From assembly GCA_041657405.1 (NCBI GenBank), contig JBBABX010000003.1:1-62717 (forward strand): a DNA stretch of 62,717 bases. Reading direction: 5' to 3'. Origin of the DNA: Minisyncoccota bacterium (GTDB taxonomy: Bacteria; Patescibacteriota; Minisyncoccia; Phycocordibacterales; XYD1-FULL-46-19). Each line of letters begins with the position of its first letter. The first letter of the stretch is position 1. Positions 1-62,717 of the stretch are shown here, piece after piece. The notes under the pieces were generated by a model. It did no database searches. It saw only the letters and a program-made list of their open reading frames with translations, and had not been told where the DNA came from. The position numbers and the translations under genes were made by a program.

Positions 1-127
1 AATTCGATTAATAACTTGCTCCTTAATTTCAGGAGCTATTTTGTATCCTTTCTTTGACATATTATTTATATGTTAATTGTTTCTAATATAGCTTAGAAAG
101 GGTGTGCAAAGAAAGGGGTACCTTTCA
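1..127 (-). mobile_element. Partial IS3-family insertion sequence (terminal repeat plus first 20 codons of orfA) running off the left window edge
   Basis: Minus-strand ATG at 60..58 opens MSKKGYKIAPEIKEQVINRI, similar to the orfA N-terminus MGKFKIDPEVKEQIISRI of the complete IS at 59744..60894. The terminus TGAAAGGTACCCC ends at 127. Bases 2..127 are the exact reverse complement of 62592..62717. Confidence 0.85.
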
Positions 128-5639: not shown

Positions 5640-6051
5640 ATCAATTACAAGTTAAAAATTAAATAATAAAAAAATAAAATATTAATAATAAGAACCAAAA
5701 CAACACAAAATAATTACATTTTAAGTTTGATTTTTCGCATAATTCACATAACTTAAAAAGCTCTTGTCAAGTCAGACTGAAGAACTTGTCTTATTTTATC
5801 TTATAAAGATGCTTTAAATTCGACCTCTAAAGCTATATTAATTTAAATTATAACAAAAAAATATTCTAAATCAAGAGGAAAAAATCACAAATAATTTAGC
5901 TCTAATTTGAAAAATACCAAACCTTAATCTTTTTTCTTCTTTTTTTGTGAATTTTGTGAATTATTTTTGTTTTTTAGAATCAAATTTTGTTTGACAACTT
6001 TTGACCTTCATTCTTATTGACTTTTCCCGACTCCCTGCTATACTTTATTTG

Positions 6052-6282
6052 ATGTTGCTTTTATCTAGTTATTTACCTTGGATTCAAATCGTCCTTTCCG
6101 CCTTGTTGGTCGGGGCAATTTTGTTACAACAAAATGAAGCCGGGCTCGGCAACGCCTTTGGCGGCGGTCAGGCAAACACCCCAAGTCATACCAAGCGCGG
6201 GTTAGAAAAACACTTATTCAACATTACAATCATCATCGCAATTCTTTTTGTTGCTTCAACCTTTTTGGCTCTATTTGTGTAA
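6052..6282 (+). CDS. secG: Preprotein translocase subunit SecG
   Basis: Two TM helices with LLQQNEAGLGNAFGGG between them. The ATG at 6052 is preferred over the TTG at 6001. Confidence 0.75.
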   Translation: MLLLSSYLPWIQIVLSALLVGAILLQQNEAGLGNAFGGGQANTPSHTKRGLEKHLFNITIIIAILFVASTFLALFV

Positions 6283-6391
6283 TTTTTATACTCTGTAAAA
6301 TTTTAACTCAGAAAATTTCTTATTTTTAATTTGCAAAATTCTCCCAGTTTTAATTTGCCATAATCTATTTAAATTATTAAATTAATTCTTT

Positions 6392-8190: not shown

Positions 8191-10074
8191 ATGACTATTA
8201 AGAGAATCAGGGTTGATGCTAGTGGCAATGTAGAAACTTTTGTCGTCAACAAAAAAAACAAAACAAAAACCTCTGGCAAAAATAATCCCCCACACACAAC
8301 CCCCAGCAAAAAAACAACTACCAGGAATTACGGCTCTAAATCTAATCGACCAAACAGACAACCAGAAAATAAAATCAAAATAAAAATCCCCCCTGTCTCC
8401 CCAGGTGTTATTAGAATCATTCCACTTGGCGGAGTAGAAGAAGTTGGCAAAAATATGACAGCAGTCGAATTCGGCAACGATATAATCGTTATTGATATTG
8501 GTCTAACTTTTCCAGGCGAAGAAGCTCCAGGCGTAGATTATATTATTGCTGACCCAACCTATCTTGAAGAGCGAAAATCAAAAATTCGCGGAGTCGTCAT
8601 CACCCACGGACATTTGGACCATATCGGAGGGATTCCTTATGTGATGTCTCGTATCGGCAATCCGCCAATTTACACCTCTCTCCTTTCAGCAGTAATGATA
8701 AAAAAACGTCAAGAAGAATTTCCCCACCTGCCAGCTTTGAATATCAATGTTGTTAGTGAAAAAGATAAAATAAAATTAGGTAATTTGTCCATTCGATTTT
8801 TTGCCACCACCCATACTATTCCAGACTCTATTGGCATTATTGTGGAAACTCCCTACGGTAATGTGATTTTTACTGGCGATTTAAAAGTAGAAAATACTGA
8901 CGGCAAACCAGAAGAGTTTGAAAAAGAACGTTTTGCCAAACTTGGCGCTGAAAAAAATTTACTTTTAGTAGCAGACTCCACCAATGTAGAGAGACCTGGT
9001 TTTTCTTATCCTGAAAAAGAAGTTCAAAAAAATGTAAAAGAAATCATCAATGCCGCCAAGGGACGAGTTATTATTGGCACTTTTGCTTCTCTCTTTGACC
9101 GCATTATCGCCATTATTGAAGCTTGTGAAGAACTCGGCAAAAAAGTAGCCATTGAGGGGCGAGCAATGAAAACAAACATTGAAATTGCTAAGGAATTGGG
9201 CTATCTAAAGACCAAACATGGCACCTTTATCACTTCTGATGAATCAGTCAATTTGCCAGATAATCAAATTGTTATTTTAGCTACCGGCGCTCAAGGAGAT
9301 GAATACGCCGCTTTGATGCGTATTTCTCAAAAAGAACACAAGCACGTCAAAATCAAAAAGGGGGACACCGTTCTTTTGTCATCATCAGTTATTCCAGGCA
9401 ATGAAAAAGCGGTCCAACGCCTAAAAGATAACCTGGCTCGACAGGGTGCTAAAATTGTTCACTACGGTATTGCTAATGTCCACTCTTCGGGCCATTCTTA
9501 CCAAGATGAAATTGCTTGGGTTAATAAGATGCTTAAACCGCGTTTTCTTTTGCCAGTCCACGGACATCAATCTATGCTTTATGTTCACGCTGATATGGCA
9601 CACGAAATAATCGGGATGCCTGAAAAAAATATCGTTGTGCCAGAAAACGGCACGATTGTAGAGATTTCTGATAAGGGTCAAAAAATTACCAAACTCAAAA
9701 AAATGGCTTCAGCCAAATTGGTAATGGTAGATGGACTTGGAGTCGGAAATGTGCAAGAAGTTGTTATCCGTGACCGACAAATGTTAGCTCAAGATGGGAT
9801 GTTTGTTTTGATTGCCATTATTGATATCAAGACAGGCAAGGTTCGAAAATCTCCAGATATTATCTCACGAGGATTTGTTTATCTAAAAGAGTCACAAGAC
9901 CTCTTACGTTATGTCCGTCTTCTAACAAAAAAGACGATTGAAAACGCTACCGCTCAAATGCATCCCATTAACCTGGATTATGTCAAAAATAATGTCCGTG
10001 AAGAATTGGGTAAATACCTCTTCCAAAAAACTCACAAGAGACCAATCATTCTGCCTGTTTTGATAGAAGTCTAA
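8191..10074 (+). CDS. rnj: Ribonuclease J with a basic low-complexity N-terminal extension
   Basis: 627 aa; metallo-beta-lactamase HGHLDHIGG, beta-CASP region and an RNase J C-terminal domain. Confidence 0.9.
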   Translation: MTIKRIRVDASGNVETFVVNKKNKTKTSGKNNPPHTTPSKKTTTRNYGSKSNRPNRQPENKIKIKIPPVSPGVIRIIPLGGVEEVGKNMTAVEFGNDIIVIDIGLTFPGEEAPGVDYIIADPTYLEERKSKIRGVVITHGHLDHIGGIPYVMSRIGNPPIYTSLLSAVMIKKRQEEFPHLPALNINVVSEKDKIKLGNLSIRFFATTHTIPDSIGIIVETPYGNVIFTGDLKVENTDGKPEEFEKERFAKLGAEKNLLLVADSTNVERPGFSYPEKEVQKNVKEIINAAKGRVIIGTFASLFDRIIAIIEACEELGKKVAIEGRAMKTNIEIAKELGYLKTKHGTFITSDESVNLPDNQIVILATGAQGDEYAALMRISQKEHKHVKIKKGDTVLLSSSVIPGNEKAVQRLKDNLARQGAKIVHYGIANVHSSGHSYQDEIAWVNKMLKPRFLLPVHGHQSMLYVHADMAHEIIGMPEKNIVVPENGTIVEISDKGQKITKLKKMASAKLVMVDGLGVGNVQEVVIRDRQMLAQDGMFVLIAIIDIKTGKVRKSPDIISRGFVYLKESQDLLRYVRLLTKKTIENATAQMHPINLDYVKNNVREELGKYLFQKTHKRPIILPVLIEV

Positions 10075-51748: not shown

Positions 51749-52372
51749 TTAGCTGTTTTTTACAAATGATAATAAAGAAGGATCGACCGTTAAGGTTAAC
51801 TTAAAAATAACATTACCACTACTGTCTAAATCAAAATTAGAAAAAGAGAAAGCTGTAATTTTACGATCTTCGCCAGTCTTTGCCACTTCTGAAGTAAAAA
51901 TTTTTGATTGATAAGCAACATCCTCATAACCTAAAGCGGCCCCACTAATTTCTATAACATTTTTGTTGAACTTAAAGTCATTAAATTTAACATTGTGAGC
52001 TGTTGCCAAACTCAGCTGCTCAAACAATGGCCGAAGCGTTTGATGGTTGGTCAAAATGGTAGAACCATTTTTTAATTTTGTATCCAAACGCTTTAATCGC
52101 GCCAAACTTTCATATTGGAAATCTCTTTTCTCACGTTCTAGAGACTCGCGCAAACCACAACTTTGAGTGCTCTCACCGCCGGTCGGACAAGGACGATTAA
52201 TTAGATTATAAACATAAAAACGATAACCAAAAATACTGGCAAAATAAACTAACGCAATCACAAAAATGATAACCGAAATCATTATAACCAAACTCAAAGG
52301 TTCACGACGTTCACGTAAATTAGAACTAATTGATTGCTTGGGTATAAATGAAGGTGATAATTTGTTATTCAT
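51749..52372 (-). CDS. PilN-like pilus assembly protein
   Basis: 207 aa with an N-terminal cytoplasmic peptide and one TM helix; directly downstream of pilM. Confidence 0.55.
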   Translation of the reverse strand: MNNKLSPSFIPKQSISSNLRERREPLSLVIMISVIIFVIALVYFASIFGYRFYVYNLINRPCPTGGESTQSCGLRESLEREKRDFQYESLARLKRLDTKLKNGSTILTNHQTLRPLFEQLSLATAHNVKFNDFKFNKNVIEISGAALGYEDVAYQSKIFTSEVAKTGEDRKITAFSFSNFDLDSSGNVIFKLTLTVDPSLLSFVKNS

Positions 52373-52395
52373 AATTTTTTAGATTTTATTTCGAC

Positions 52396-53535
52396 CTAAA
52401 GGTCCTCAAGTTTACGCAAGGCCAAGCCAATTGCGACAGCAAATTCTGGACCAGTTTCCTTTAATACATCGTTTAAAAAAACCGGCGTTTCAACTTTATC
52501 GAAAGGTGTCCCCATCATAATCGGTAAGCCTAATACTTCTCGCGCCACATCACTTATTCCTTTCATCATTGACCCACCACCGATCAAAACAACTTTATCA
52601 ATCGCTCGCTTATGTTTTTTTTGATATTGTAACATTATTTTGCCAGCTTCAGCAAAGATATATTCTACAGTTGGATTCACACTTTCTAAAAGTTCCCCAT
52701 TATCCACCTCGCCCAAAAGACCAAATTTTCGTTTAATTTCTTCCGCTTTAGCAAAAGGCACGGACAAAGATTTAGAAATAGCAATTGTAATATCTTGAGA
52801 ACCTTTGACAATTGTGTGCGAAACACGAACTAGACCATAATCAACAATGGCAATTTTAGAAGTGCCAGCGCCAATATCTAAAATAGCCGTAGCTGTTAGG
52901 TCATTGGGCATCACTGAACGAATAGAGCTAAAGGTTTCTATTTCAAAAATTCCCAAAGACAAGTTTAATTTTTGTAAAATATCTTGATAAAGCCTGATAA
53001 CATCTTTTTGGATAGAAGCAATTAAGACTCCAATTTTTTTCCCATAAGTTTTTTGTTTTTCGCCCGAAGATAATTCTTGGTCAGCTTCCCGTTCATCAAA
53101 AGAGCTTTGGGGCATTATCCGCCAATCAAGTTCAACTTCAGAAATCGGTAATGGCACATATTTACGGGCTTCAATCGGCACTATTTCCGCTAGTTTTTCT
53201 TCATCCATTTCTGGCATTTCCACATTAACTAGAAGACTATTACGAAGCGGAATAGCCATTGCACTAAGTTTAGCCGTTACATTCGCTTCACGGAAAAGAT
53301 CCTGTAAAAGTTCTATCATCTTTTCAGCTGGTAAGTTAGTCGCTTGTCCGACCGACAAACCAGAATAAGGGCCACAGGCTAAACCACCATAAGTTTCTAA
53401 AATGGCACGGCCTTTTTCTTTGCGTAATTGAACAACTTTGACTGAAGATGAACCGAAATCAATCGCCACGACACTTTTTTCTTTTGATCCAGTGCTTTCT
53501 TTAATTACCTTTAATAATTTGTCAAAAATTCCCAT
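52396..53535 (-). CDS. pilM: Type IV pilus assembly protein PilM (actin-like ATPase fold)
   Basis: 379 aa; AIDFGSSSVKVV, DIGAGTSKIAIV, LIGGGS. Confidence 0.88.
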   Translation of the reverse strand: MGIFDKLLKVIKESTGSKEKSVVAIDFGSSSVKVVQLRKEKGRAILETYGGLACGPYSGLSVGQATNLPAEKMIELLQDLFREANVTAKLSAMAIPLRNSLLVNVEMPEMDEEKLAEIVPIEARKYVPLPISEVELDWRIMPQSSFDEREADQELSSGEKQKTYGKKIGVLIASIQKDVIRLYQDILQKLNLSLGIFEIETFSSIRSVMPNDLTATAILDIGAGTSKIAIVDYGLVRVSHTIVKGSQDITIAISKSLSVPFAKAEEIKRKFGLLGEVDNGELLESVNPTVEYIFAEAGKIMLQYQKKHKRAIDKVVLIGGGSMMKGISDVAREVLGLPIMMGTPFDKVETPVFLNDVLKETGPEFAVAIGLALRKLEDL

Positions 53536-53592
53536 AAAAAGTTGAGATAAGTTATAATAATTATAGCACGACTAAAAGAACAAAGCTCTCGT

Positions 53593-54288
53593 ATGGTCAA
53601 GAATTATCCACACAATTACCCTTGTCAATTAATTAGTCCCGTCATTAAAAAAATTCTGTCTTTTATTTTTCCGCCACGTTGTGTGCGATGCGGTTTGGTT
53701 GGTTCTTTTTTATGCGACAATTGTTTACCTCAATTAACCAAAAGTGATGGGATAATTGAAGACGGAATTATTGCCGCCTTTGATTATCACGACCCAGCTG
53801 TCAAAAAAGCAATTCATTATTTGAAATATCGCCGTATTAAAGACTTGACTGCGACATTAGCAAATAAAATTTATGAGACTTTTTTGAACACTACTGGTGA
53901 TGAATTGATTTTTAATCGTGGCAACGGCAAAATTATAGTTGTTCCAGTTCCCCTTTACCGAAAACGAATGCGAGAACGCGGTTTTAACCAAGCTGAAGAG
54001 TTGGCTAATCTTTTTTGCATTTTAGACCCAGAAAATTTTGAAGTTAAAACTGATTTGATTTTTAAAATTAAAAACACCCCACCTCAAGCCCAACAGAAAA
54101 AACGCGTCACTAGATTAAAAAATTTAAAAAACGCTTTTGCAATCAGAAAACATCCTCAAATTGCTGGTAAAATTGTCGTGATTATTGATGATGTCGCTAC
54201 GACCGGATCCACGATTAATGAAATCAAGAAGATATTGTTAAAAAACGGTGTCCGCCGAATTTACGCTGTCGTTGTCGCTCACGGGTAA
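53593..54288 (+). CDS. comFC: ComF family protein (phosphoribosyltransferase-like, ComFC)
   Basis: 231 aa; N-terminal CxxC...CxxC and a C-terminal PRT motif VVIIDDVATTGST. Confidence 0.85.
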   Translation: MVKNYPHNYPCQLISPVIKKILSFIFPPRCVRCGLVGSFLCDNCLPQLTKSDGIIEDGIIAAFDYHDPAVKKAIHYLKYRRIKDLTATLANKIYETFLNTTGDELIFNRGNGKIIVVPVPLYRKRMRERGFNQAEELANLFCILDPENFEVKTDLIFKIKNTPPQAQQKKRVTRLKNLKNAFAIRKHPQIAGKIVVIIDDVATTGSTINEIKKILLKNGVRRIYAVVVAHG

Positions 54289-54363
54289 AAATAATAAGAA
54301 AAACAGTTATTTTAGTCTTTTCCCAAGATTTATAGCTTTTTTGGGCTTTTGAGGAATTTATAC

Positions 54364-54392
54364 TTGACTAAAAAAAAGTTATATGATATACT
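54364..54392 (+). promoter_or_regulatory. Sigma-70-like promoter of the 54444 gene
   Basis: TTGACT (54364..54369), a 17-nt spacer, then TATACT (54387..54392). The same hexamers and spacing occur at 61792..61820. Confidence 0.6.
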
Positions 54393-54443
54393 ATATAAAG
54401 ATAGTTTGATAGTTTGTTCTTTAAGATAAAGAAGGGGGCCAAA

Positions 54444-54932
54444 ATGGTCAAAACAATGTCTCAAATTAAAACTCTGGGAGAACAGGTCCGTATTCTTAAG
54501 AGCTATTTCCCTTGGTTGGAAACAGTGGAAAAACGCGAGACAAATCATCCCTTGCCGCTAGATGCGGATGGATGGTTTGCTATCCCCAGGTGGCAAAGCT
54601 TTGGAGCAAGTTATTCCGAAGCTGTCGAAAGAATTTTGGAATCCTTGGCAAGAGCCCAAAAATTCCAAAAGAAGTGCCAATTGACAGGACTACGGCCTCG
54701 TCAATTGGAGCAGATTGGTAATCACGACATTCTCGTGATCCCAGATACTTTCGGCCCAAAATCCCAACTTGGAATTTTTGAGGTTGGAGTAAAACTCCTA
54801 ACCCATCCCGGAAGATTATCCCACTTTGCCGATCCTTGGATTGAATGTTGGGGAGACCGGGTAGGAAGAAATATCCCCGTATTTTACCACCGGGATATTC
54901 TAAAGTTAAGGCTGAAGCTTGAAGAAACCTAA
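54444..54932 (+). CDS. Conserved hypothetical protein (GWFAIPxWQ family); low-GC paralog of the ORF at 61967
   Basis: An AAGAAGGGGG ribosome-binding site lies before the ATG at 54444. Shared blocks with the 61967 ORF: GEQVRILKSYFP / TEQCNILRQIFP, DGWFAIPRWQ..SYSEAVERIL / EGWFAIPKWQ..TYAEAVQKVL, HDILVIPDTFG / HDILVVAAQFG. Confidence 0.7.
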   Translation: MVKTMSQIKTLGEQVRILKSYFPWLETVEKRETNHPLPLDADGWFAIPRWQSFGASYSEAVERILESLARAQKFQKKCQLTGLRPRQLEQIGNHDILVIPDTFGPKSQLGIFEVGVKLLTHPGRLSHFADPWIECWGDRVGRNIPVFYHRDILKLRLKLEET

Positions 54933-55358
54933 CCCCCTCTAAGCCGGACTATCAAAAATAGCCCGGCTTTATTTTACAAAATTTTTGGCTTGCACTGGCC
55001 CGGCTATTTAAACGCTACAGACTTAAACATTCATTTTGGATAGACGATTTGACCGTGTCAGGCAACTGTTCAATAAAAAAATTTGGCCTCCGAATTAAAG
55101 ACTCCGTCTTTGAAGATAACTTTTTTACAATGCGGACAATTACCCACCGTCAATTGATCCTTGTTCATATATTTTGGTTTGGAAGGTTCTCAGTCGCCAA
55201 CCCGACAAGTGAAGGGCTGGCAACAGAGGACCTCGCTTGGACGGTTCGCATTTCCGTCATGAAGTCGGACCTCGGCCACAGATATCCTTGCTCATAATGT
55301 TAATTAATAAAGCCAATTAAAGATCCGGATCGACAATTCCGGACCGTTAACTATTTAG

Positions 55359-55802
55359 TTAGGTGTCCTCATGAGTATTTGGTAGAACTATTTTCTTTTT
55401 TCGCTTTTCTTCAAGTTTTTCCTCCTCATCGGAATAATCAACTGCGTCTTTGCCAGCAAAGAAAATATAAGGTATTTGCTTATCACCTCTTAACGTTTTG
55501 TTGATGTAATCGTCATTGAAGACTCTAATTTTTGATTTAAGATCATTCAGAGAGTCTGTTTCAGAAAGTGTTGCTGTGTCAGTTTTTATTTTGAATGAAC
55601 AGTTTTCTAATTTAGTATCTGTTTCTATATTATAAAAAATCTTCGATAGTGTAGTTTTGCCAGACCCGTTCCAACCAAAGAGTATGTTTACTGAGTCACA
55701 AAAAGGCTGGACTGTAGTGTCCCAGTTAAAATGCCTATACCGTGCGTGATTAAGTTTTTCAATTTTTTTGATCCTCACAATCTTTATTATCGCAAAAAAC
55801 AC
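55359..55802 (-). pseudogene. N-terminal fragment of an AAA_13-type ATPase (PrrC/RloC-like family)
   Basis: IKKIEKLNHARYRHFNWD...NILFGWNGSGKTTLSKIF is the typical N-terminus and P-loop of this family, whose members are several-fold longer. The ORF stops after 147 codons. Confidence 0.6.
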
Positions 55803-55972
55803 TACTTTTGACTAAGTAGTGTTTTTTGACTGAAACGTATAGTACTCGGGTCACTCCGATACTTAGTTTTCTTGGCGGTGGACATGGGTATGGTACCCAC
55901 AGCTCCAAGCGTTGTGAGGGTATTCTAGCATATTTCCGATTGTGAAAATAAGGTTTGTGGGTCTAGGTCTCC

Positions 55973-56110
55973 AAATGCCAACAAATGCCAATTTTTTTTG
56001 AATATTATGGGTTTGCAAATGCGACAAATGCGACACGCTAAAAAGGCTGGAATTTTGTTGTGAATGGGACAAATGGGACACAAAAAGTGGCTTTTGAGCT
56101 GTGTCCCATT
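55973..56110. repeat. Iteron-like array: seven AAATG-SSR-AC units arranged as three tandem doublets plus one inverted copy
   Basis: AAATGCCAAC-AAATGCCAAT (55973..55992), AAATGCGAC-AAATGCGAC (56017..56034), GAATGGGAC-AAATGGGAC (56062..56079), and inverted GTCCCATTT (56102..56110). Confidence 0.8.
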
Positions 56111-56194
56111 TACCCATAATTAGTCTTAATTATTGGTATTTTCTAACATTTAGTAACACCTTATCGGATTCGTTATAACCTACAAAATCAACAT

Positions 56195-57508
56195 TTATTT
56201 AATTATTCCAAGCATTATTAGTAGAAAAACAATTTGATATTCTTCAGAATCTTTTCCGAATAAATTAGCCATTAAATCTAGCATTTGATCTTGTGACAGA
56301 TTAGCATTGTTGGATTCAGTATTTGAATTATTATAATCATTATCACTATTCTTACTTTTCTCTATTTCTATAGCAGGAGAACTATCACCAGCAGCCTTAC
56401 CGCCAAATCTAAAGTAATAATAGCCTGGTTCTAAATTTACAGGCAAATTAACTTGCAAACTTTCTTGACCTAGATATGCAGTACCAAGATCTAATATTTC
56501 TGTTCCAATAGAAACATTAGTTGGACCATTCCTTAAATAGTCATTCGACGGTTTTCTGTCGTATTTATACAAATGAACATCGGTCCATTCTGCTTTTACA
56601 ATATTTTCCCATTTTAAAGTGTATCTTTGTCCTGCCTCTATTTTTTCAGGGGTTCTTTGTCCTTCTTTTGGATTAATAAATCTAATGTCTCCCCATTTTT
56701 CAAACATTTCACCAAAACTTTCTTCGTCAGACTCTTCGACTTCAATTTTAACTGTTTTTGTTAATTGAGAACCATAGTCATTTTTATATTTATTAGCGCA
56801 ATAAGAAGTGGTACTGAGGTCTGAGCAATATGCAGTAATTTCAATTTTATACTTTCCGTCTCTAGATACTGGATCAAATGTTAGAAACCATTCGCTTCCA
56901 TTGAAATAACCGTTTACTGAGTCAAAAGCTTGACTGCTATTACTTTCAGATATTCTAGCCTGGACATTAAATCCCTTGCTTCTATCAAGAATTACACCGT
57001 CTTTCTCCCAAGCTTTCAGGCTAATCTCAATTTTTTCTCCTGTGTAATAAGGGTCTTCCGTCTCAATATCAGTAATCTTATATTCAGTATCTTGTAATTC
57101 AACAATATTTTCATTTTCTGGATTTATAATACTAAATTCACCACTATATTCTACGTCTCCGTTTTCAAAAGTAAGTTTAACTTTATAATTACCAGTATTG
57201 TATGTCCCTATAAATTTTGGTAGCTCGTACCTTATTAAACCACTATAATTTATTGGGTCGCCATACACCTTTGGTCCATAAATGTAAGAACCATAGTTAT
57301 TATTTCCTGTAGACTGTATTTCAGCAGACTTAACACCCGAGGCTTTATATGTATCTGCATCACCTGGTCTCCATCTTATTTCAATCTCCTCACCTAGATA
57401 ATACCTATCTGCCTTTTGTGGACTAGATATATCCGCCGTATTAGCTGATACAAATAATGGACTAACAAATAGAATTGATAAAATTAAAAATAAATATTGT
57501 TTTTTCAT
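56195..57508 (-). CDS. Secreted/cell-surface protein with signal peptide and hydrophobic C-terminal tail, hypothetical
   Basis: 437 aa; MKKQYLFLILSILFVSPLFVSANT signal peptide, repeated beta-rich modules, an Asn/Ser-rich linker and a C-terminal FLLIMLGIIK. Confidence 0.7.
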   Translation of the reverse strand: MKKQYLFLILSILFVSPLFVSANTADISSPQKADRYYLGEEIEIRWRPGDADTYKASGVKSAEIQSTGNNNYGSYIYGPKVYGDPINYSGLIRYELPKFIGTYNTGNYKVKLTFENGDVEYSGEFSIINPENENIVELQDTEYKITDIETEDPYYTGEKIEISLKAWEKDGVILDRSKGFNVQARISESNSSQAFDSVNGYFNGSEWFLTFDPVSRDGKYKIEITAYCSDLSTTSYCANKYKNDYGSQLTKTVKIEVEESDEESFGEMFEKWGDIRFINPKEGQRTPEKIEAGQRYTLKWENIVKAEWTDVHLYKYDRKPSNDYLRNGPTNVSIGTEILDLGTAYLGQESLQVNLPVNLEPGYYYFRFGGKAAGDSSPAIEIEKSKNSDNDYNNSNTESNNANLSQDQMLDLMANLFGKDSEEYQIVFLLIMLGIIK

Positions 57509-57517
57509 ATGTTTTAA

Positions 57518-57546
57518 ATTTTACCCCCCCCATTCACAAAAGTAAA
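57518..57546 (-). promoter_or_regulatory. Promoter with a G8 tract in a 17-nt spacer (minus strand: TTTACT-N17-TAAAAT)
   Basis: Plus-strand ATTTTA 57518..57523, C8 57524..57531, AGTAAA 57541..57546. The ATG at 57508 is only 9 nt from the -10 box. Confidence 0.5.
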
Positions 57547-57581
57547 GCCAGTTTTATAGAAAAGTACGATTCGTCTTGCAG

Positions 57582-58763
57582 TTATTTCAACCAAGATCCA
57601 TTTGGGTAAATATTGTTATCAGACTGATATTTTTTAAGAGCACTTTCTGTGCAATTTCTAAAGTTCCCATTTAGTGGGCAATTATTTAAATTATCATTAT
57701 AGGGATAATATCCTCTATCATGTAAAAAATTCTGAAGGGCCAAAACATCTAATCCTTTATCTCCAAATGATAAATTTCTTTTCCATTTATAATTATCGAA
57801 ATCTTTAAATGTTTCATGATCTGATTCTGTGTCATTCAAATAATCCATAATCCCAAAATATGTTTGCTGTGCTAATTCTTTCAAAATAACATCTTTGACT
57901 TTCTGATCTGTGAATTGTGATTCATAAATGTATCCATATTCAATTAGTGCTGAAACTGAGTCAACGGTATTGTATGAACCAATAGCAATCAGTTCTTGAT
58001 CTTCTGTAATCATATTTTCTTTAGGCATATCACTGACGGCAAACATATTTGATAAGTGCCTTGCAACTTTTTCAGCAAAATCATGACTTGCTTCGGCATT
58101 TGAATATTGTTTTTCTGGAACATAAATAGAAAAACCACTATATTTACCGTAGGAACTAGTTCGTCCAGGGTAATCATTAAAATGGATATGGAGTGTTATA
58201 TCGAAATCGTTGTCATTAGCAAATTTATTAATACCATATAAGATATCTACCACTTCTGGTCTAGCAAAATTATGTTGGACAACAATATTACTTTTAACTT
58301 TTCCTTCTTCCATTAATTCTTTTATTATTTCTTTTTTTTCTTTTTGAAATTCTTCGATATTTTCTTTTTCGCTATCAAGATATTTTTGCAATTCTGGATT
58401 GTAGCCAGAGCCATCTCTAGACAATAAAATTTCAATTCCTTTTTCCTTCTCTAAAATATTTTTTAGTTCTTCTGCAACGATTAAATTTATTTCTGCTTCG
58501 GTTGTGTTATTGGCATATGCACCAAAGCTATCATTGTCATGACCAGGAACAATTAATATTTTAATTTTTTCATCATGTTTGCCAGATGAAGCACCATTGT
58601 ATTTTTCTACTATATCTTCTGTATAAACACTTGTCGTGAAGAAAACACTTGCTAGAAAATTTGATGTTCCATCTTTAAATATATCTACAGAAGAGAATGC
58701 CATGAAAAATAAAGCAGAAATTGAAAGAGCGAATGTGAGATACGGGTTTATTTTATAATTCAT
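57582..58763 (-). CDS. N-acetylmuramoyl-L-alanine amidase (Amidase_3) with a C-terminal peptidoglycan-binding domain
   Basis: 393 aa with a signal anchor; ILIVPGHDNDSFGA, LHIHFND, and C-terminal GDKGLDVLALQNFLHDRGYY (PG_binding_1-like). Confidence 0.8.
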   Translation of the reverse strand: MNYKINPYLTFALSISALFFMAFSSVDIFKDGTSNFLASVFFTTSVYTEDIVEKYNGASSGKHDEKIKILIVPGHDNDSFGAYANNTTEAEINLIVAEELKNILEKEKGIEILLSRDGSGYNPELQKYLDSEKENIEEFQKEKKEIIKELMEEGKVKSNIVVQHNFARPEVVDILYGINKFANDNDFDITLHIHFNDYPGRTSSYGKYSGFSIYVPEKQYSNAEASHDFAEKVARHLSNMFAVSDMPKENMITEDQELIAIGSYNTVDSVSALIEYGYIYESQFTDQKVKDVILKELAQQTYFGIMDYLNDTESDHETFKDFDNYKWKRNLSFGDKGLDVLALQNFLHDRGYYPYNDNLNNCPLNGNFRNCTESALKKYQSDNNIYPNGSWLK

Positions 58764-58777
58764 AATATTTTGAGTAA

Positions 58778-58807
58778 ATTTTACCCCCCCCCATTCACAA
58801 AAGTAAA
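58778..58807 (-). promoter_or_regulatory. Second copy of the same promoter, with a G9 tract in an 18-nt spacer
   Basis: Plus-strand ATTTTA 58778..58783, C9 58784..58792, AGTAAA 58802..58807. About 35 nt are identical to the 57518 copy apart from tract length. Confidence 0.5.
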
Positions 58808-58962
58808 GTAAAAATATGGCTAGTTACCAACTTCTTACCTACTCGGGACGCTCTAGACTCATCAAAGTGGTTGCGTCATTAATGTAGGTATGAAAATAAC
58901 AGCACCACAGGGCTTTGAAATAGCTCAGGAGAACATAGGAGTAACAAAGAGTAGGTATTTGC

Positions 58963-59743
58963 TTGTATGCTCGTAAGTCGAGCGAATCTGAGGAAAGACA
59001 GGTTCTTTCGATCGATTCACAGATCAAGGAAATGCTCCAGTTAGCAGAGCGTGAAGGACTTGAGATTGTATCAATGAAACGTGAATCCCACTCTGCCAAA
59101 GAAACAGGCTGTAGAACCGTATTCAATGAAATTATAGAAGAAATAAGAGAAGAAAAATATAATGCCATACTTACATGGGCACCTGATCGTATTTCAAGAA
59201 ATGCAGGAGATCTTGGAAAGATAGTAGATTTGATGGATGCAGGAAAACTTTTGCAAATCAGAACGTATGGACAAACATTTTCAAACAATCCAAATGAGAA
59301 ATTCCTTTTAATGATTCTTGGTTCACAAGCAAAACTAGAAAATGATAATCGAGGCATTAACGTGAAGCGAGGACTTCGAACAAGGGTTGAGTCAGGTCTC
59401 TGGCCCGGCATGGCACCTCTTGGATATTTGAATCAAAAAAGAATGGATAAGAAATGTCAGATAATAGTCGATCCAGATCGTGCTCATGTAATTAAACAAA
59501 TGTTTGAGAAAGTTGCATACGAAGGATGGAGTGGCAGAAAAGTATACAACTGGCTCAGGTTTGATTTAAATTTTTATACACGTGAAAATAAACCCCTGAC
59601 ACTGTCGGGGGTTTATCGTATTTTCAATATGACAATCTATTATGGTCCATTCGAGTATCCACGAAATTCAGGGCAGCGGTTACGATCAATAAAATATTTA
59701 TATTGTCTAAAAGTATGGGCATATTTTTATCCACATTTCGCTA
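58963..59743 (+). pseudogene. Second large serine recombinase paralog, truncated at both ends
   Basis: YARKSSESEERQVLSIDSQ and DRISRN are colinear with the 128..978 protein up to ...FEYPRNSGQ (about 59676). Homology then fades and the frame runs into the IS at 59744. An in-frame stop 18 nt upstream of the TTG leaves no normal N-terminus. Confidence 0.75.
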
Positions 59744-59807
59744 TGACAGGTACCCCAAATTTTGAACACTCTCTATACAAATTATTAATCTAAATTAGTA
59801 TAGAAAT

Positions 59808-60059
59808 ATGGGAAAATTCAAAATAGATCCAGAAGTTAAGGAACAAATTATTAGTCGAATTAAAAACGAAGGTATAACCGTAGTTCAGGCCTCAAAAGAT
59901 CATGGGATATCATCTCAAACTATCTATCGTTGGCTAGGAGTTGGCACTAATGCCCCAACATACTCTGAATTTGCAAAATTGAAGAAAGAAAACAAAGCTC
60001 TCCTAGAGCTAGTCGGTGAAATGACTCTCAAATTAAATGAAACCCAAAAAAAGAATTGA
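59808..60059 (+). CDS. IS3-family transposase OrfA (HTH)
   Basis: 83 aa; ITVVQASKDHGISSQTIYRWL helix-turn-helix and a leucine-zipper-like C-terminus. The slippery A-AAA-AAG is in frame at 60047..60053. Confidence 0.9.
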   Translation: MGKFKIDPEVKEQIISRIKNEGITVVQASKDHGISSQTIYRWLGVGTNAPTYSEFAKLKKENKALLELVGEMTLKLNETQKKN

Positions 60060-60865
60060 GGAATATGGAATCTTCAAACAAATCAATTCTCGCAAAAGAA
60101 TTGGGTGTTTCCAGAGGTTCGTTATACTACCAATCCAAACAAGAAGTTAAAGATTGGAAAACTAAAATCTTGATTGAAGAAGCTCTCAGAGACAATCCGT
60201 CATATGGACACAAACGATTAGCATTTCATCTGAAAATGAACAAAAAGAGAGTTCTCAGGGTGATGAAGATATATGGAATTAAACCATACAGAAGACATGG
60301 CAAGAAATACAAGAAAACCAAGAATATTAAGGTTATTTATCCAAATCTGTTGTTAACTGAATATCCAAAATATGAAAATCATATATGGGCTAGCGATTTC
60401 ACTTATCTAAAGATTGGAAAGAAGAATGTCTATGTTTGTACAGTTATGGATCTGTATACCAAGAAAATTATTGGATTATCAATTCTAACCAACCACACAG
60501 TTCAATTAACCGTTAATGCTTTAATGCAAGCCTTGAACAATCATGCCAGACCTGAAATCTTTCATTCAGATAATGGAAGAGAATATGAAGCTAAAGATTT
60601 CAGAAATATCTTGATTAATTTAGGTATAAAAATATCCAGATCAGCTCCAGGTTGTCCTTGGGAGAACGGTTATCAAGAATCATTCTACGATAAGTTCAAA
60701 ATTGAACTAGGTGATCCAAACAGATTCCATTCATTAGGAGAACTAACCTTTGAAATCTACCAGCAAATTCATTACTACAACCACAATCGAATTCACACGG
60801 CTCTGAAAATGTCGCCAAATCAGTTTGCTGAAATGAATAAATTAGCTACAATATTTAATGTATAA
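60056..60865 (+). CDS. IS3-family transposase OrfB (DDE integrase core), expressed as OrfAB by -1 frameshifting
   Basis: ASDFTYL (D), HSDNGREY (D), CPWENGYQESFY (E). The frame is -1 relative to orfA. Confidence 0.9.
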   Translation: MRNMESSNKSILAKELGVSRGSLYYQSKQEVKDWKTKILIEEALRDNPSYGHKRLAFHLKMNKKRVLRVMKIYGIKPYRRHGKKYKKTKNIKVIYPNLLLTEYPKYENHIWASDFTYLKIGKKNVYVCTVMDLYTKKIIGLSILTNHTVQLTVNALMQALNNHARPEIFHSDNGREYEAKDFRNILINLGIKISRSAPGCPWENGYQESFYDKFKIELGDPNRFHSLGELTFEIYQQIHYYNHNRIHTALKMSPNQFAEMNKLATIFNV

Positions 60866-60894
60866 AGAGTGTCTAAAGAAAGGGGTACCTTTCA

Positions 60895-61486
60895 CGGTGA
60901 GTTGTTGCCAATCTTCTTGATATGAAAGCGAATAACAAATTACGTACTTAGGTTTATGTTCCTCAATTAGCTTTCGTAGTGCTTCAATCCGTTCACTTTT
61001 GTATGTCTCTAGATAATCCTTTCTTGAGGATAGTCCGTCTATACCTGAATCAGCATAGAGTCAATCTTTATCTGCAACAGATTTTGATGGCAACGGCATT
61101 AACTCCAACAATGCGTTGTTGGAGTTTTTACGTCCCAGTTTATTGATTTGGAACGCACGTACTGCTTCTTTGTCTGGGAACGTATGCGTTTCAGCGTATA
61201 GCATCATCTCAATAAGGCGACGCCACGTTGGTTGAATTGGTGCTCCATCTTCAAACCAGTACACATGACCTGGATCTATTTTTAAATCATCGTATATGTC
61301 ATAAGTTTGTTTGTGTGCGGTAGCGGTGAAGCGGTCTAGTAATATTTCGTTCGTTTCGTTATATCCTTCTTCCATACCGATAAACCAGTATGGACTGTTG
61401 AGGTTTCCATAACCCCAAAAGTTTTTTATACGTTCTTGTATCAATAGTCTAAAACCATCTCCATGAGGAGACTTTTCTGTACACAT
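60895..61486 (-). pseudogene. Hypothetical gene with an in-frame TGA (61061..61063), 3' end removed by the IS at 60894
   Basis: ORF 61061..61486 ends ...SKSVADKD-TGA. The same frame continues open as LYADSGIDGLSSRKDYLETYKSERIEALRKLIEEHKPKYVICYSLSYQEDWQQLT up to the IS terminus. Confidence 0.65.
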
Positions 61487-61488
61487 AA

Positions 61489-61641
61489 ATTCAACCGGGT
61501 TTTAAGATGGAAAGAGGCAGATATACAAAAGGCTCCTAGCCATCGCGATCCATCCTTTCGGACAGACCCATATCCGTTTCCAGATATGACCCGGTTGAGT
61601 GACTCTGACTAGGAGTCCTTTATACTCAACCGGGTGTTTTT
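61489..61641. promoter_or_regulatory. Three-element RNA switch-like structure: one 12-mer and two copies of its complement
   Basis: ATTCAACCGGGT (61489..61500) and ACTCAACCGGGT (61624..61635) are both complementary to ACCCGGTTGAGT (61589..61600). The 61589/61624 hairpin is followed by GTTTTT on the plus strand. The 61489 copy lies 2 nt upstream of the minus-strand ATG at 61486. Confidence 0.4.
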
Positions 61642-61791
61642 CACCATACCTCCCAGAAAAATCCGAAAGGGTTAGGCTACTGATAATATTCAATTGTCAA
61701 TCCACATAATACAGATATTATCTGTATAAGTCCACGATTCTATCGCAGAAACAAAGGTTTGCTAAGCCCTGTTGCCAACACGTTGAAAACC

Positions 61792-61820
61792 TTGACTTTT
61801 CCTTGACTATTTGATATACT
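61792..61820 (+). promoter_or_regulatory. Sigma-70-like promoter upstream of the high-GC ORF
   Basis: TTGACT (61792..61797), a 17-nt spacer, then TATACT (61815..61820), followed by TAGTTTGCTCTTT. This nearly matches TAGTTTGTTCTTT downstream of the 54364 promoter. Confidence 0.55.
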
Positions 61821-61855
61821 TATTATGTAGTTTGCTCTTTGATATTTCAGGACTT

Positions 61856-61907
61856 TTGAGACTAGCGTTGTGGAAGTTTTTAGAAGCTTCTAGAACGCTA
61901 GTCTCAA
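61856..61907 (+). promoter_or_regulatory. Nested perfect palindrome in the 5' leader of the high-GC ORF
   Basis: 14-bp arms TTGAGACTAGCGTT / AACGCTAGTCTCAA enclose the 12-bp palindrome TAGAAGCTTCTA (61881..61892). Confidence 0.5.
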
Positions 61908-61966
61908 GAACGAGACAAGTCGTCTACCCGAGCGGTTCGGGCAATTCAACATAAGGAGCTAACGTC

Positions 61967-62591
61967 ATGACGACGCTTACTCAGGAAACGGCCTCCGATG
62001 GCCAGATGAAGCAAATCACTCGCATGGCCACCGACGCTGCCGAGAAGGCGGTGAAGGCCTATGCCAACGCCAACTACCTCAGCAAGGAAGGTGCCGAGCG
62101 CGTGAAGGGCAACGCCGACTTCGTTGGCCGCATCCACGCCGCGACCGTTCTTGCCCTCGCCGAACTGTCGGTCACCGACAAGTTCAAGAACGAAGAGGTC
62201 GCCTCGAATTACGGCTATCTCCCCGGCTACACGAAGCCCAAGTCGATCACGGAGCAGTGCAACATCCTGCGCCAGATCTTCCCGGGTGTCGGGTTCGCCG
62301 ACGAGAAGCTCGCCGAGCGCGAGGTGCCCAAGCACGCCGAAGGGTGGTTCGCCATCCCGAAGTGGCAGACGGTCGCTCCGACCTACGCCGAAGCGGTGCA
62401 GAAGGTACTCGACGCGATCAAGAAGGTCCGGAACGGCAAGTTCTACAACCACCGTGACGGCCAGATCAACGATCAGCGTCTGCGCCAGTCGACCCAGACG
62501 GAGGCGGTGTTCCAGAAGCTCGGAGACGAGCAGAAGGATCACGACATCCTCGTGGTCGCCGCCCAGTTCGGTCTGCGTCATCGTGGTCGCT
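61967..62591 (+). CDS. High-GC gene fragment of the GWFAIPxWQ family, 3' end cut by the IS at 62592
   Basis: AAGGAG lies 7 nt before the ATG. GC-rich third codon positions; sampled lines are 41/60 and 36/60 GC. Overlapping open frames on both strands are typical of high-GC DNA. The protein aligns with the 54444..54932 product. Confidence 0.75.
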
Positions 62592-62717
62592 TGAAAGGTA
62601 CCCCTTTCTTTGCACACCCTTTCTAAGCTATATTAGAAACAATTAACATATAAATAATATGTCAAAGAAAGGATACAAAATAGCTCCTGAAATTAAGGAG
62701 CAAGTTATTAATCGAAT
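62592..62717 (+). mobile_element. Partial IS3-family insertion sequence (terminal repeat plus first 20 codons of orfA) running off the right window edge
   Basis: TGAAAGGTACCCCTTTCTTTGCACACCC terminus with the orfA ATG at 62659. It is the exact reverse complement of 2..127. Confidence 0.85.

Follow-up and report, generated by a model that had tools for sequence, protein, structure and literature searches.

The window, i.e., the whole stretch of 62,717 nt analysed here, carries near its right end the truncated first part of a GC-rich gene, with a conserved leader, a promoter candidate and an RNA motif upstream of it, in a region rich in insertion sequences (IS). The following features were found:

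1-127, minus strand: IS3-family left end, an inverted copy at the other contig end, 100% identical to the reverse complement of 62592-62717
128-978, minus strand: second large serine recombinase, Resolvase and Recombinase domains, cut by the IS (ORF 73-978 extends into the IS)
54444-54932, plus strand: 162-aa relative of the target family (BLASTP E = 6e-19)
58963-59743, plus strand: N-terminal ~260 residues of a large serine recombinase, Resolvase and Recombinase domains, cut by an IS at 59744
59744-60894, plus strand: complete IS3-family element, orfA 59808-60059, orfB 60056-60865
61061-61486, minus strand: 141-aa ORF between IS and LOOT RNA, called as gene in contigs L086 and L087
61547-61678, minus strand: LOOT RNA (Rfam RF03000), 76.8 bits versus a gathering score of 46.4, model positions 1-121
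61792-61820, plus strand: sigma-70-like promoter candidate (TTGACT, 17 nt, TG-TATACT), 10/12 in a consensus scan, function putative
61840-61966, plus strand: 5' leader of the target gene, conserved, with the RBS GGAG and ...TAACGTC at its end ahead of the ATG
61856-61907, plus strand: long leader hairpin (inverted repeat I3), 22-bp consensus stem
61967-62591, plus strand: predicted fragment of a target gene of a diversity-generating retroelement (DGR), codons 1-208 of ~296-301 aa, 91% identical to the full-length protein P0002 over 208 residues
62592-62717, plus strand: left end of a second IS3-family element, IRL 62592-62625, orfA from 62660, contig ending within it

The gene fragment at 61967-62591 showed a GC content of 0.62 and a GC3 (G or C at the third codon position) of 0.85, with G or C in 176 of the 208 third positions between 61967 and 62590, compared to a median GC3 of 0.315 for the 56 window ORFs of at least 150 aa. 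A 300-nt profile gave GC values of 0.28-0.46 over 52-61.7 kb and of 0.58-0.63 at 61900-62500. Using the window median (0.37) plus 0.13 as threshold, 61851-62650 was the sole GC island of the 62.7-kb window. The preliminary description had reported a sharp shift in composition from about 61920, third positions almost all occupied by G or C, and G+C counts of 41/60 (62101-62160), 36/60 (62221-62280) and 24/60 (8461-8520); all of this was borne out, the counts exactly. The long overlapping ORFs noticed there on both strands are present and represent by-products of GC3-rich coding.

Truncation of the gene by an IS was confirmed as well, with the boundary exactly at 62591/62592 in an IS-rich region. 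The called ORF runs 11 codons past this boundary to a stop at 62626, yielding a 219-aa product. In the complete element, 59808-60059 was identified as HTH_Tnp_1 and 60056-60865 as rve/rve_3/rve_2; with orfA (HTH_Tnp_1) and orfB (rve DDE), a length of ~1.15 kb and TG...CA ends, it resembles known members of the IS3 family and shows nothing unusual. Its terminal inverted repeats begin at 59744 with TGACAGGTACCCC... and end with ...GGGGTACCTTTCA at 60894. The second element begins at 62592 with TGAAAGGTACCCC..., and 62592-62625 forms an inverted repeat (88% complementary) with the right end of the first element at 60861-60894. The N-terminus of its orfA, MSKKGYKIAPEIKEQVINR, of which the first 19 codons are visible, resembles that of the first copy. 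Despite their relatedness, the two IS types of the window are not identical. The flanks of the 59744-60894 element show no obvious 3-bp repeat as target-site duplication, and the contig ends inside the other IS. Homology to L087 begins exactly at 59744; the DNA left of it differs in L087.

Both large serine recombinases of the window are related to enzymes encoded close to DGR cassettes. The one at 58963-59743 is 87% identical to ~450-aa recombinases near the cassette in L008, L014 and L016 and 63-73% identical to those in L001, L011, L017, L029 and L030. The one at 128-978, whose junction with the IS was read directly, shows 59-65% identity to cassette-linked recombinases. To our knowledge, the LOOT motif is known from metagenomes only and has no function assigned. 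The copy found here is a full-length Rfam match. What sets LOOT apart in this context is its repeated association with DGR cassettes and their serine recombinases: of the 55 Patescibacteria sources searched, 14 had LOOT at the edge of a DGR cassette or adjoining the serine recombinase of the cassette, a link for which no description was found in the literature. For the ORF at 61061-61486, Pfam, NCBIfam, PHROG and PADLOC gave no match. DNA homology of the leader region to L001 starts at 61786, and the TTGAC(T/A) box of the promoter candidate is kept in alignment A4. The leader itself (61840-61966) is alignable in at least 20 loci and had no match in Rfam. In 20 sequences of its hairpin 97.8% of the cells pair, and compensatory changes were observed for 12 of the 22 pairs; 0 of 500 shuffles reached the observed values, and slid controls dropped to 31-49% paired. 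G-U pairs are conserved, and the hairpin is most likely an RNA of the sense strand.

The family of the encoded protein, which the preliminary description had not recognised and had listed as of unknown function, can now be placed: its members are DGR variable proteins. Neither the target protein nor the 54444-54932 paralog was matched in Pfam, NCBIfam, PHROGs or PADLOC. At least 929 homologs were identified, 296-301 aa at full length and the best of them 91% identical. They are almost confined to Patescibacteria, and the named ones all belong to Parcubacteria, Paceibacterota or Patescibacteria. Full-length relatives carry a variable region (VR) of ~131 nt at the 3' end and a template repeat (TR) ~0.5 kb off. 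The mismatches between VR and TR fall on TR adenines in 18 of 18 cases in L001 and in 456 of 475 cases over 26 loci, and an RVT_1 reverse transcriptase (RT) and bAvd were found within ~1 kb of the target gene in about 25 relatives' loci. Five natural variants (P0030-P0034) are identical over residues 1-253, with differences scattered in 254-285 only, and a third-position A content of 0.00-0.04 is found in VR codons only. The VR of L001 ends in an invariant G/C-rich block followed by GTCCT-N8-AGGAC, the TR copy being without the repeat (one locus, read from the alignment). In intact relatives, RT and Avd would copy the ~131-nt TR into cDNA, misreading adenines, and the cDNA would overwrite the last ~40 codons of the target gene, i.e., the VR. 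Such rewriting probably diversifies a ligand-binding surface.

The fragment at 61967-62591 is thus almost certainly the promoter-proximal 208 codons of a DGR variable-protein (target) gene; the assignment of this copy, whose VR is gone, comes entirely from homology. The last ~90 residues of the protein, the VR among them, are absent, and a tblastn search of the 62.7-kb window found neither RT nor Avd nor the C-terminal part of the target gene. There is no TR within the window, the contig ending inside an IS. Insertion of an IS3-family element after codon 208 has cut off the VR-bearing 3' end. With this end severed, the copy can no longer serve as a DGR target. Target gene, leader, LOOT RNA and large serine recombinase, all of them damaged by IS here, together resemble the remains of a DGR island of the type circulating among Patescibacteria.

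For the protein structure, an AF2 model from an 87-sequence alignment reached a pLDDT of 86.4; the model from a 10-sequence alignment (pLDDT 49) was unusable. The top PDB matches by Foldseek were C-type-lectin-like domains, all of them non-significant (E 0.4-2, probability of at most 0.41, target-normalised TM 0.41-0.51). No significant structural match was found in PDB or BFVD, solved DGR variable proteins were absent from the top list, and a sequence search of PDB with the family profile gave no match. Mtd of Bordetella phage BPP-1, TvpA, TaqVP and archaeal AvpA share with the target family the C-terminal VR with a TR differing at adenines, the adjacent Avd and RT, natural VR variation and, weakly, the C-type-lectin-like domain as best structural match. 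Clear differences are seen in other respects. The VR motif ends in ...GSASGF(L/V)PQ in place of the ...NLGFR of classical DGR variable proteins, and the target family is without a Pfam or PDB-chain sequence match. Further, within an AT-rich genome the whole ~900-nt CDS stands out as a GC island, it is preceded by a structured 5' leader that is conserved, and the window copy is truncated and VR-less.

DGRs in Patescibacteria are already known. Wu et al. (2018; PMC5758913) described a 'CPR set' of Patescibacteria DGRs whose VR classes are unclassified, and Roux et al. (2021; PMC8144416) a CPR-restricted RT clade 2; the target family fits these chromosomal, Patescibacteria-confined DGRs with domain-less targets. 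In the portions of PMC5758913 and PMC8144416 consulted, atypical GC of whole DGRs is mentioned only as a sign of recent transfer; a GC excess limited to the target gene next to an RT of host-like GC, a leader common to target genes, or a linkage to LOOT or serine recombinase is not described there.

Homology of the fragment to the gene at 54444-54932, as claimed from three short shared blocks, was verified by a significant BLASTP alignment of the two proteins (32% identity over 142 columns, E = 6e-19) which includes these blocks. It begins at residue 92 of the fragment versus residue 9 of the 54444-54932 protein, so that the reported ~90 extra N-terminal residues are real. In tblastn, residues 92-274 of P0002 aligned to 54444-54932. 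The low-GC resident gene is a divergent, shortened member of the family, with a GC3 of 0.42 between host and family, and possesses neither the N-terminal module nor the basic RHRGRSVRRAR loop nor a VR. Close relatives of it were not found: a word-indexed search returned the protein itself only, and the best non-self match in phmmer was 43% identical.

The high GC content turned out to be common in the family. Over 56 Patescibacteria loci the target gene showed a mean GC3 of 0.72 versus 0.41 for flanking ORFs, the latter computed on all long ORFs, some of them spurious; the median excess was +0.36. The relatives of 50-91% identity all reside in contigs of Patescibacteria with 0.28-0.54 GC, where they are equally GC-rich; host assignments rest on MAG binning, and several record titles are plainly mislabelled. 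The edges of the islands are the edges of the CDS, with GC values of 0.58 for the gene, 0.42 for the leader, 0.44 for positions +1 to +100 and 0.43 for the flank. RT, Avd, rplK, rpoBC and ftsZ range from 0.28 to 0.50 in GC3. Along the whole target gene GC3 is 0.57-0.88, highest in the clade around P0002/P0118, and no gradient falling away from the VR was seen. A dependence of the GC excess on an adjacent DGR was not seen either, the GC3 excess being equal with and without an adjacent TR. Exceptions with host-like GC are L021, L024, L045 and L054. Deep clades still have a GC3 of 0.5-0.7 near synonymous saturation (4-fold identity of 0.37 observed versus 0.34 expected). A survey anchored on the RT revealed three short target families whose GC3 excess, +0.21 to +0.27, extends over the whole gene; in DGR targets of 865-1000 aa the GC enrichment is confined to the last 50 codons. 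The two other short families possess the GC trait together with a conserved 5' leader hairpin, and common ancestry of the short families was unsupported (hhalign probability 5.5%). No published report of GC-rich DGR targets was found in literature searches. We consider the high GC content, with a probability of roughly 0.75, not as the mark of a foreign high-GC donor but as a standing property which, in the AT-rich genomes of Patescibacteria, the target family shares with two or more further families of short DGR targets.

Comparing the target core with copies elsewhere, 85-90% protein identity and a 4-fold identity of 0.75-0.85 (0.75 between the window and L010) were observed, while the hosts' housekeeping proteins are only 52-58% identical to those of the window. 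Within one pair of loci carrying both genes, 4-fold identity was 0.67 in the target core versus 0.30 in the RT. N-terminal module and core show conflicting similarity. Judged from these comparisons, the target alleles are mosaic and exchanged between Patescibacteria lineages. On terminal branches, synonymous GC->AT and AT->GC changes were counted by parsimony, which on skewed composition inflates GC->AT counts, as 204:93, a ratio of 2.2. This ratio differs from the equilibrium value of 1.0 (p = 1e-10) and also from the 4.9 of neutral decay at host bias (p = 8e-10), an expectation which takes host GC3 as the mutational equilibrium of the host. The GC->AT excess on the tips makes slow decay from a GC-rich origin possible and places the gene off compositional equilibrium; at 2.2:1 versus ~5:1 under neutrality, something favours GC. 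These data would fit a scheme in which alleles are exchanged and recombine between lineages, and AT-biased mutation in the host is partly offset by a fixation bias toward G/C-ending codons which acts on the CDS. We hold this explanation tentatively, at slightly less than even odds.

Several other causes of GC-rich codons were tried and rejected. An overlapping antisense gene is one of them: its frame is open only since TTA, CTA and TCA are rare, and these codons, at 1.8 per gene, are as frequent in the acidobacterial homologs and not specially depleted compared to other A-ending codons. Gene-wide avoidance of adenine against DGR mutagenesis failed on A3, which is ~0 in the VR only and 0.08-0.20, near T3, elsewhere, and on the long DGR targets, in which only the VR departs from the host. 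Codon optimisation for high expression was dismissed with the genes for ribosomal protein, RNA polymerase, FtsZ and S1 in the same loci, whose GC3 is 0.28-0.43. A specific selective reason for GC-rich codons was not demonstrated.

The GC content might also persist without any maintaining force, if a fast-moving pool of copies were fed from an unsampled GC-rich reservoir (plasmid, phage or GC-rich Patescibacteria lineage) and copies were replaced before they decay. The mosaic alleles and the far later coalescence of the target gene compared to its hosts speak for this, as do the prevalence of GC->AT changes on the tips, the near-host GC of divergent or orphaned members (GC3 of 0.42 for the 54444-54932 paralog, host-like values for L024, L045 and L054) and the GC3 peak in the P0002/P0118 clade. 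However, a GC-rich context was absent in 85 genome loci, in metagenome-assembly loci and in IMG/VR. The latter, with 2.9 million contigs, contained one match, of the same GC pattern and with a flank GC of 0.41, and therefore no GC-rich phage reservoir was seen. Mutually saturated deep clades all retain a GC3 of 0.5-0.7, the tip ratio is well under the neutral one, and the linked RT and Avd are host-like despite travelling in the same cassette. Overall, we regard such a reservoir as unlikely.

GC-biased gene conversion, with the target gene as a recombination hot spot in which biased heteroduplex repair raises GC3, appears still less probable. Recombining bacterial genes tend to higher GC3, and the clear mosaicism of the alleles, the GC-favouring fixation bias without GC-biased mutation and the independence of the effect from the protein family would all agree with it. 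However, the GC effect ends at start and stop codons; the leader, although inside the homologous tract (from 61786), and the 3' flank have a GC of only 0.42-0.44. Moreover, effects of this kind reported in bacteria are far below an excess of +0.36 in GC3. Selection on the CDS appears more likely than GC-biased gene conversion, because conserved leader and 3' flank are not GC-enriched.

According to the first reading of the fragment, a xenolog was imported once and recently into an IS-rich hotspot, from a high-GC donor not belonging to the Patescibacteria, and is still unameliorated. What remains of it is the horizontal component, in the form of a horizontally exchanged pool of mosaic alleles; a high-GC donor is not supported, all close relatives residing in Patescibacteria contigs. 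The composition of the gene is strikingly foreign, IS elements and recombinase genes lie all around, high-GC homologs exist in Acidobacteriaceae, and the GC->AT bias of tip substitutions is what amelioration predicts. Nevertheless, the relatives of 50-91% identity show the same anomaly in low-GC Patescibacteria contigs, and the only high-GC hosts are one tight clade of Acidobacteriaceae (mean internal identity 0.74), whose homologs are ~40% identical, without a DGR, in a fixed Lon-X-VWA context, and prefer CTG/GTG where the Patescibacteria genes use CTC/GTC. The identity of ~40%, the different codon preference and the position among deep Patescibacteria branches led us to reject Acidobacteria as donor. 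This position was read from a midpoint-rooted NJ tree. The neighbouring RT and Avd of the same cassettes are host-like in GC, and decay proceeds at less than half the neutral expectation. Compared to acquired genes under the amelioration model, atypical GC and codon usage, mobile-element neighbours and a recent GC->AT bias are shared. The differences are that the anomaly here concerns one gene only, is common to relatives in more than 50 hosts of 0.28-0.54 GC, persists beyond the point where synonymous sites are saturated, and decays less than half as fast as expected under neutrality. We therefore consider recent import very improbable.

The alternative raised by the preliminary description was an assembly chimera, in which the reads of a high-GC organism would have been attached to a low-GC contig. 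It is suggested by the sharp shift in composition close to the end of the contig and by the repeat in which the contig ends, but has practically no chance of being correct. The exact 219-aa product and both junctions are also present in ENA metagenome contig L086 and NCBI MAG contig L087. On the left side, the succession of LOOT, promoter, leader and gene is found again in L005, L009, L014, L016, L019 and L025; on the right side, the junction consists of a clean terminal repeat of an IS. Single-gene GC islands of the target family occur in more than 50 unrelated assemblies, and the layout of low-GC flank, leader and GC-rich gene in dozens.

High GC as a standing property of the family, in islands of a single gene adjoining an RT of host-like GC, conflicts with the usual view that atypical GC indicates recent foreign origin. 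We found no prior description of a very large Pfam-less target family and two other short ones forming one-gene GC islands with a host-like adjacent RT and a GC-favouring fixation bias, nor of a covarying 5' leader hairpin common to short DGR target genes. GC-based island detectors and MAG decontamination tools will flag or remove such genuine genes. It is conceivable, although we rather doubt it, that the short stand-alone DGR targets of Patescibacteria constitute a distinct class of at least three BLAST-unlinked families with a structured 5' leader RNA, in which GC3 is actively held at 0.6-0.9 and RT and Avd drift with the host. If so, single-gene GC islands would be a practical marker for short DGR target genes, and either a GC-rich CDS would be needed for expression, stability or retrohoming, or a recombination-driven conversion bias would be exceptionally strong. 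If the GC trait is selected, it would point to an unknown constraint on the expression or diversification of hypervariable genes in ultra-small symbiotic bacteria.

The GC-rich gene at 61967-62591 (+), which covers codons 1-208 of its family, lies in the sole GC island of the 62,717-base window (61851-62650; threshold, the window median of 0.37 plus 0.13). In 300-nt windows, GC ranges from 0.28 to 0.46 between 52 and 61.7 kb and from 0.58 to 0.63 at 61900-62500. The line counts quoted in the preliminary description (41/60, 36/60 and 24/60 G+C) were exact on recount, and the G/C-rich third codon positions it had noticed amount to 176 of 208, with a third-position G+C (GC3) of 0.85 versus a median of 0.315 for the 56 ORFs with 150 aa or more. 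The long overlapping ORFs reported on both strands exist as well. They are a passive by-product, because TTA, CTA and TCA are nearly absent from the gene and the codon-aligned antisense frame is thereby open; a selected antisense gene was rejected as cause of the GC content on this ground. The claimed truncation by an insertion sequence (IS) was confirmed, with native sequence ending at 62591 and the IS inverted repeat starting at 62592.

Features of the window
1-127 and 62592-62717: IS left-end copies at both contig ends, inverted, reverse complements of each other
73-978 (-): large serine recombinase gene, IS-cut at the contig's other end
58963-59743: second recombinase gene, cut by the first IS
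59744-60894: first IS3-family element, complete (orfA HTH_Tnp_1, orfB rve)
61547-61678 (-): LOOT RNA motif (Rfam RF03000), 290 nt upstream of the GC-rich gene
61840-61966: conserved 5' leader of the GC-rich gene, comprising a covarying hairpin of 22 bp, another short hairpin and then the RBS
61856-61907: the 22-bp leader hairpin
62592-62625: inverted-repeat end of the IS cutting the GC-rich gene, partner of 60861-60894 (right end of the first IS)

The fragment is not an assembly chimera of high-GC and low-GC reads, the alternative offered before: the exact 219-aa product, including 11 IS-derived codons, is also present on L086, an ENA metagenome contig that matches window 51967-62709 at 100% identity, and on L087, an NCBI MAG contig that does so for 59744-62713, and dozens of unrelated assemblies again show a low-GC flank followed by the leader and the GC-rich gene. 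All three contigs terminate within the IS. Left of the first IS (59744), positions 1-1287 of L087 were wholly unlike window 58457-59743, reflecting either a structural variant or another assembly path through the IS.

The 208-residue product matched 929 proteins (best 91% identical), whose names, where attached, are all Parcubacteria, Paceibacterota, Zambryskibacteria or Patescibacteria, and a profile of more distant members added a further 1,576 of the same kind; full-length relatives have 296-301 aa. Pfam, NCBIfam, PHROGs and PADLOC held no match for the family. In the closest relative (loci L001/L002 from other genomes) bAvd and an RVT_1 reverse transcriptase (RT) come after the gene, whose final 132 nt recur 531 nt downstream at 86% identity, with 18 of 18 differences at adenines of the downstream copy. 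In a set of 85 loci drawn from species-representative genomes, a variable region (VR) of ~131 nt at the extreme 3' end of the gene, with a template repeat (TR) ~0.4-0.55 kb away, was present in 26 from Patescibacteria, and 456 of 475 mismatches fell at TR adenines; RT and Avd adjoin the gene in ~25 loci. Five natural variants were identical over residues 1-253, their scattered differences being confined to 254-285. Because of the adenine-mismatch pattern, the adjoining RT and Avd and the VR-confined variation, we assign the family as variable proteins (targets) of diversity-generating retroelements (DGRs). A confident AlphaFold model (87 sequences, pLDDT 86.4) predicted a helical module at the N-terminus and an alpha/beta domain; the VR falls in the terminal beta-strands. 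C-type-lectin-like domains were the top PDB matches for the model, at non-significant scores, making a fold like the usual DGR scaffold suggestive and not established; a BFVD structure search with the model found nothing.

High GC is a trait of this family and not the signature of a donor. In 56 Patescibacteria loci with a flank GC of 0.28-0.54 the target was found at 0.53-0.64, with few exceptions, and mean GC3 was 0.72 versus 0.41 for flanking ORFs (median excess +0.36), the flanking-ORF value deriving partly from spurious ORFs. Usually no other GC island lies within 20 kb of the target, and the borders of the island are those of its coding sequence (mean GC: gene 0.58, leader 0.42, flank 0.43, first 100 nt downstream 0.44; TR copy 0.56). 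At L022, in contrast to most loci, two more GC-rich genes just upstream form a multi-gene island, a 170-aa ORF of no assigned function (7191-7703, -) and a 312-aa putative band-7-type membrane protein by appearance (8591-9529, -). High-GC hosts were restricted to one tight Acidobacteriaceae/Terracidiphilus clade at ~40% identity (L057-L085, e.g., L078 9740-10696), whose native GC is high; all host labels rest on MAG binning. No DGR was found near these members. Their context is fixed as Lon-X-VWA, the gene lying directly downstream of Lon protease in 3 of 3 loci examined and being followed by a VWA gene in 2, and they prefer CTG/GTG versus CTC/GTC in Patescibacteria members. As the clade falls among deep, divergent Patescibacteria branches in a midpoint-rooted NJ tree, transfer outward from Patescibacteria to Acidobacteriaceae seems possible.

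A second survey, anchored on RT, covered 80 further Patescibacteria loci (L089-L168) and yielded TR/VR pairs, in which TR adenines account for 80% or more of the mismatches, in 61 and a target ORF in 57.

GC3 excess of target families over flanking ORFs
Family of the window gene, n = 15: +0.27
Cluster 0, ~250-300 aa, classical ...GL.V...W...LGV..ARK ending, n = 21: +0.23
Cluster 2, n = 8: +0.21
Cluster-0 targets of 865-1022 aa, n = 4: no overall excess, raised in the last 50 codons only

The short targets of clusters 0 and 2 are thus whole-gene GC islands as well, and profile comparison gave no connection between cluster 0 and the family of the window gene (hhalign probability 5.5%). Locus L007 holds a second GC-rich gene (5789-6577, -; GC3 0.78) of the cluster-0 family with a classical VR-like C-terminus (...NNWWDDDRSDNLGVSSARKS), for which the local TR gave no match.

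Several causes of the trait were rejected. Third-position adenine drops, to 0.00-0.04, in VR codons only, which excludes gene-wide adenine avoidance, and codon optimisation for high expression fails because ribosomal protein, RNA polymerase, FtsZ and S1 genes of the same loci have a GC3 of 0.28-0.50, as do the cassette RT and Avd. No GC gradient decays away from the VR, and the excess is equal with or without a nearby TR, hence independent of a neighbouring DGR. A phage reservoir was dismissed, as IMG/VR held the target in only 1 of 2.9 million contigs (flank GC 0.41). On terminal branches, synonymous third-position changes from GC to AT outnumbered the reverse (204 vs 93, ratio 2.2), a pattern that is incompatible with GC-biased mutation and places the gene off compositional equilibrium. 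The ratio was nevertheless well under the 4.9 expected for neutral decay at each host's bias (p = 8e-10), a test that is conservative in one respect, since host equilibrium GC is probably below host GC3, and weakened in another by the bias of parsimony under skewed composition. Deep clades, mutually saturated at 4-fold sites (0.37 observed, 0.34 expected), still have a target GC3 of 0.5-0.7 versus 0.2-0.4 in the host. As the best reading of the cause we infer a fixation bias towards G/C-ending codons. A GC-rich reservoir outside the present sampling, combined with rapid turnover of copies, is a serious rival. If fixation is biased, biased gene conversion seems a less likely cause than selection on the coding sequence, because the conserved leader lacks the enrichment and the effect does not extend past the start and stop codons.

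The leader hairpin showed pairing in 97.8% of cells (20 sequences) and compensatory changes at 12 pairs, values attained by 0 of 500 shuffles, and its conserved G-U pairs point to a structure that would act as RNA. Rfam does not contain the leader. It also precedes cluster-0 targets in at least 9 loci and the second GC-rich gene of L007 (copies at L007 6551-6653 (-), L103 4221-4288, L115 3128-3206, L138 5060-5124 and others), and is thereby common to DGR targets of at least two BLAST-unrelated Patescibacteria families; it could be a new cis-regulatory RNA. Of 55 Patescibacteria sources searched for LOOT, 14 have it either at the outer cassette edge or immediately upstream of the cassette's large serine recombinase gene and in divergent orientation (L005 9650-9774, L008 14832-14960, L011 8312-8431, L016 1622-1751, L018 11050-11181 and others). 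In the window a 141-aa ORF without match in any library (61061-61486, -) lies directly downstream on the same strand, and LOOT could be its 5' leader.

Patescibacteria-restricted DGRs with targets of unknown fold are established, and an unusual GC content across an entire DGR has served as an indicator of recent transfer (PMC5758913, PMC8144416), whereas here the excess is confined to the target. The literature covered by our search, with one key CPR paper outside it, contained no report of a target-only GC excess, the shared leader or a LOOT-DGR link.

The IS removed residues 209-301 of the window copy including the VR, so that its assignment as a probable DGR target is by homology, and tblastn of the 62.7-kb window detected no RT, Avd or C-terminal part of the target. 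The recombinase at 58963-59743 shares 87% identity with the ~450-aa recombinases found close to the DGR cassettes of L008, L014 and L016, and 63-73% with counterparts in five other loci. With the target and two large serine recombinase genes cut by IS3-family elements, and one recombinase of the cassette type, the window holds what looks like an IS-riddled remnant of a DGR island. These three cut genes and the inverted IS ends suggest IS-mediated rearrangement; the missing 3' part of the target may, like TR, avd and RT, be located outside the contig on the far side of an IS copy.

The resident homolog proposed earlier (54444-54932, +) was verified by BLASTP (E = 6e-19, 32% identity, 142 columns). 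All three quoted blocks lie within the alignment, which begins at residue 92 of the window product versus residue 9 of the paralog, in agreement with the extra N-terminal stretch described. The paralog aligns with residues 92-274 of the full-length target protein and lacks N-terminal module, basic loop and VR. Searches of 5.8 billion clustered proteins and of 1.8 billion representatives turned up no close relative (best non-self match 43% identical), and the GC3 of the paralog is intermediate, at 0.42. The paralog resembles an old copy that is decaying or has been re-purposed, and the slightly GC-elevated stretch at 54.4-55.5 kb looks like a decaying island. The adjacent 147-aa ORF (55359-55802, -) is a gene fragment, as it matches only the first ~108 of 713 AAA_13 profile positions.

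Comparison of L001, L005, L007, L008, L010 and L018 revealed conflicting similarities, 4-fold sites included, between codons 1-70, which encode the N-terminal module, and codons 71-208, the core. Protein identity was 47% in the module and 89% in the core for L005 versus L001, and 88% and 74% for L008 versus L018. The conflict between the nearest relatives of module and core implies that target alleles are mosaics formed by recombination between lineages. When the same pairs of loci are compared, the core is much better conserved at 4-fold sites than RT (L001 versus L008, 0.67 and 0.30, the latter at saturation), and the window and L010 cores share 0.75 of 4-fold sites, against 52-58% identity for housekeeping proteins between these genomes. 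DNA homology between window and L001 (91.7%) starts at 61786, within the putative promoter; upstream of this position nothing aligns between the two. Of the recent acquisition from a high-GC donor considered before, acquisition thus stands in a relative sense, and the high-GC donor is not supported, the partners being other Patescibacteria with the same GC-rich gene: the target gene is exchanged between Patescibacteria lineages.
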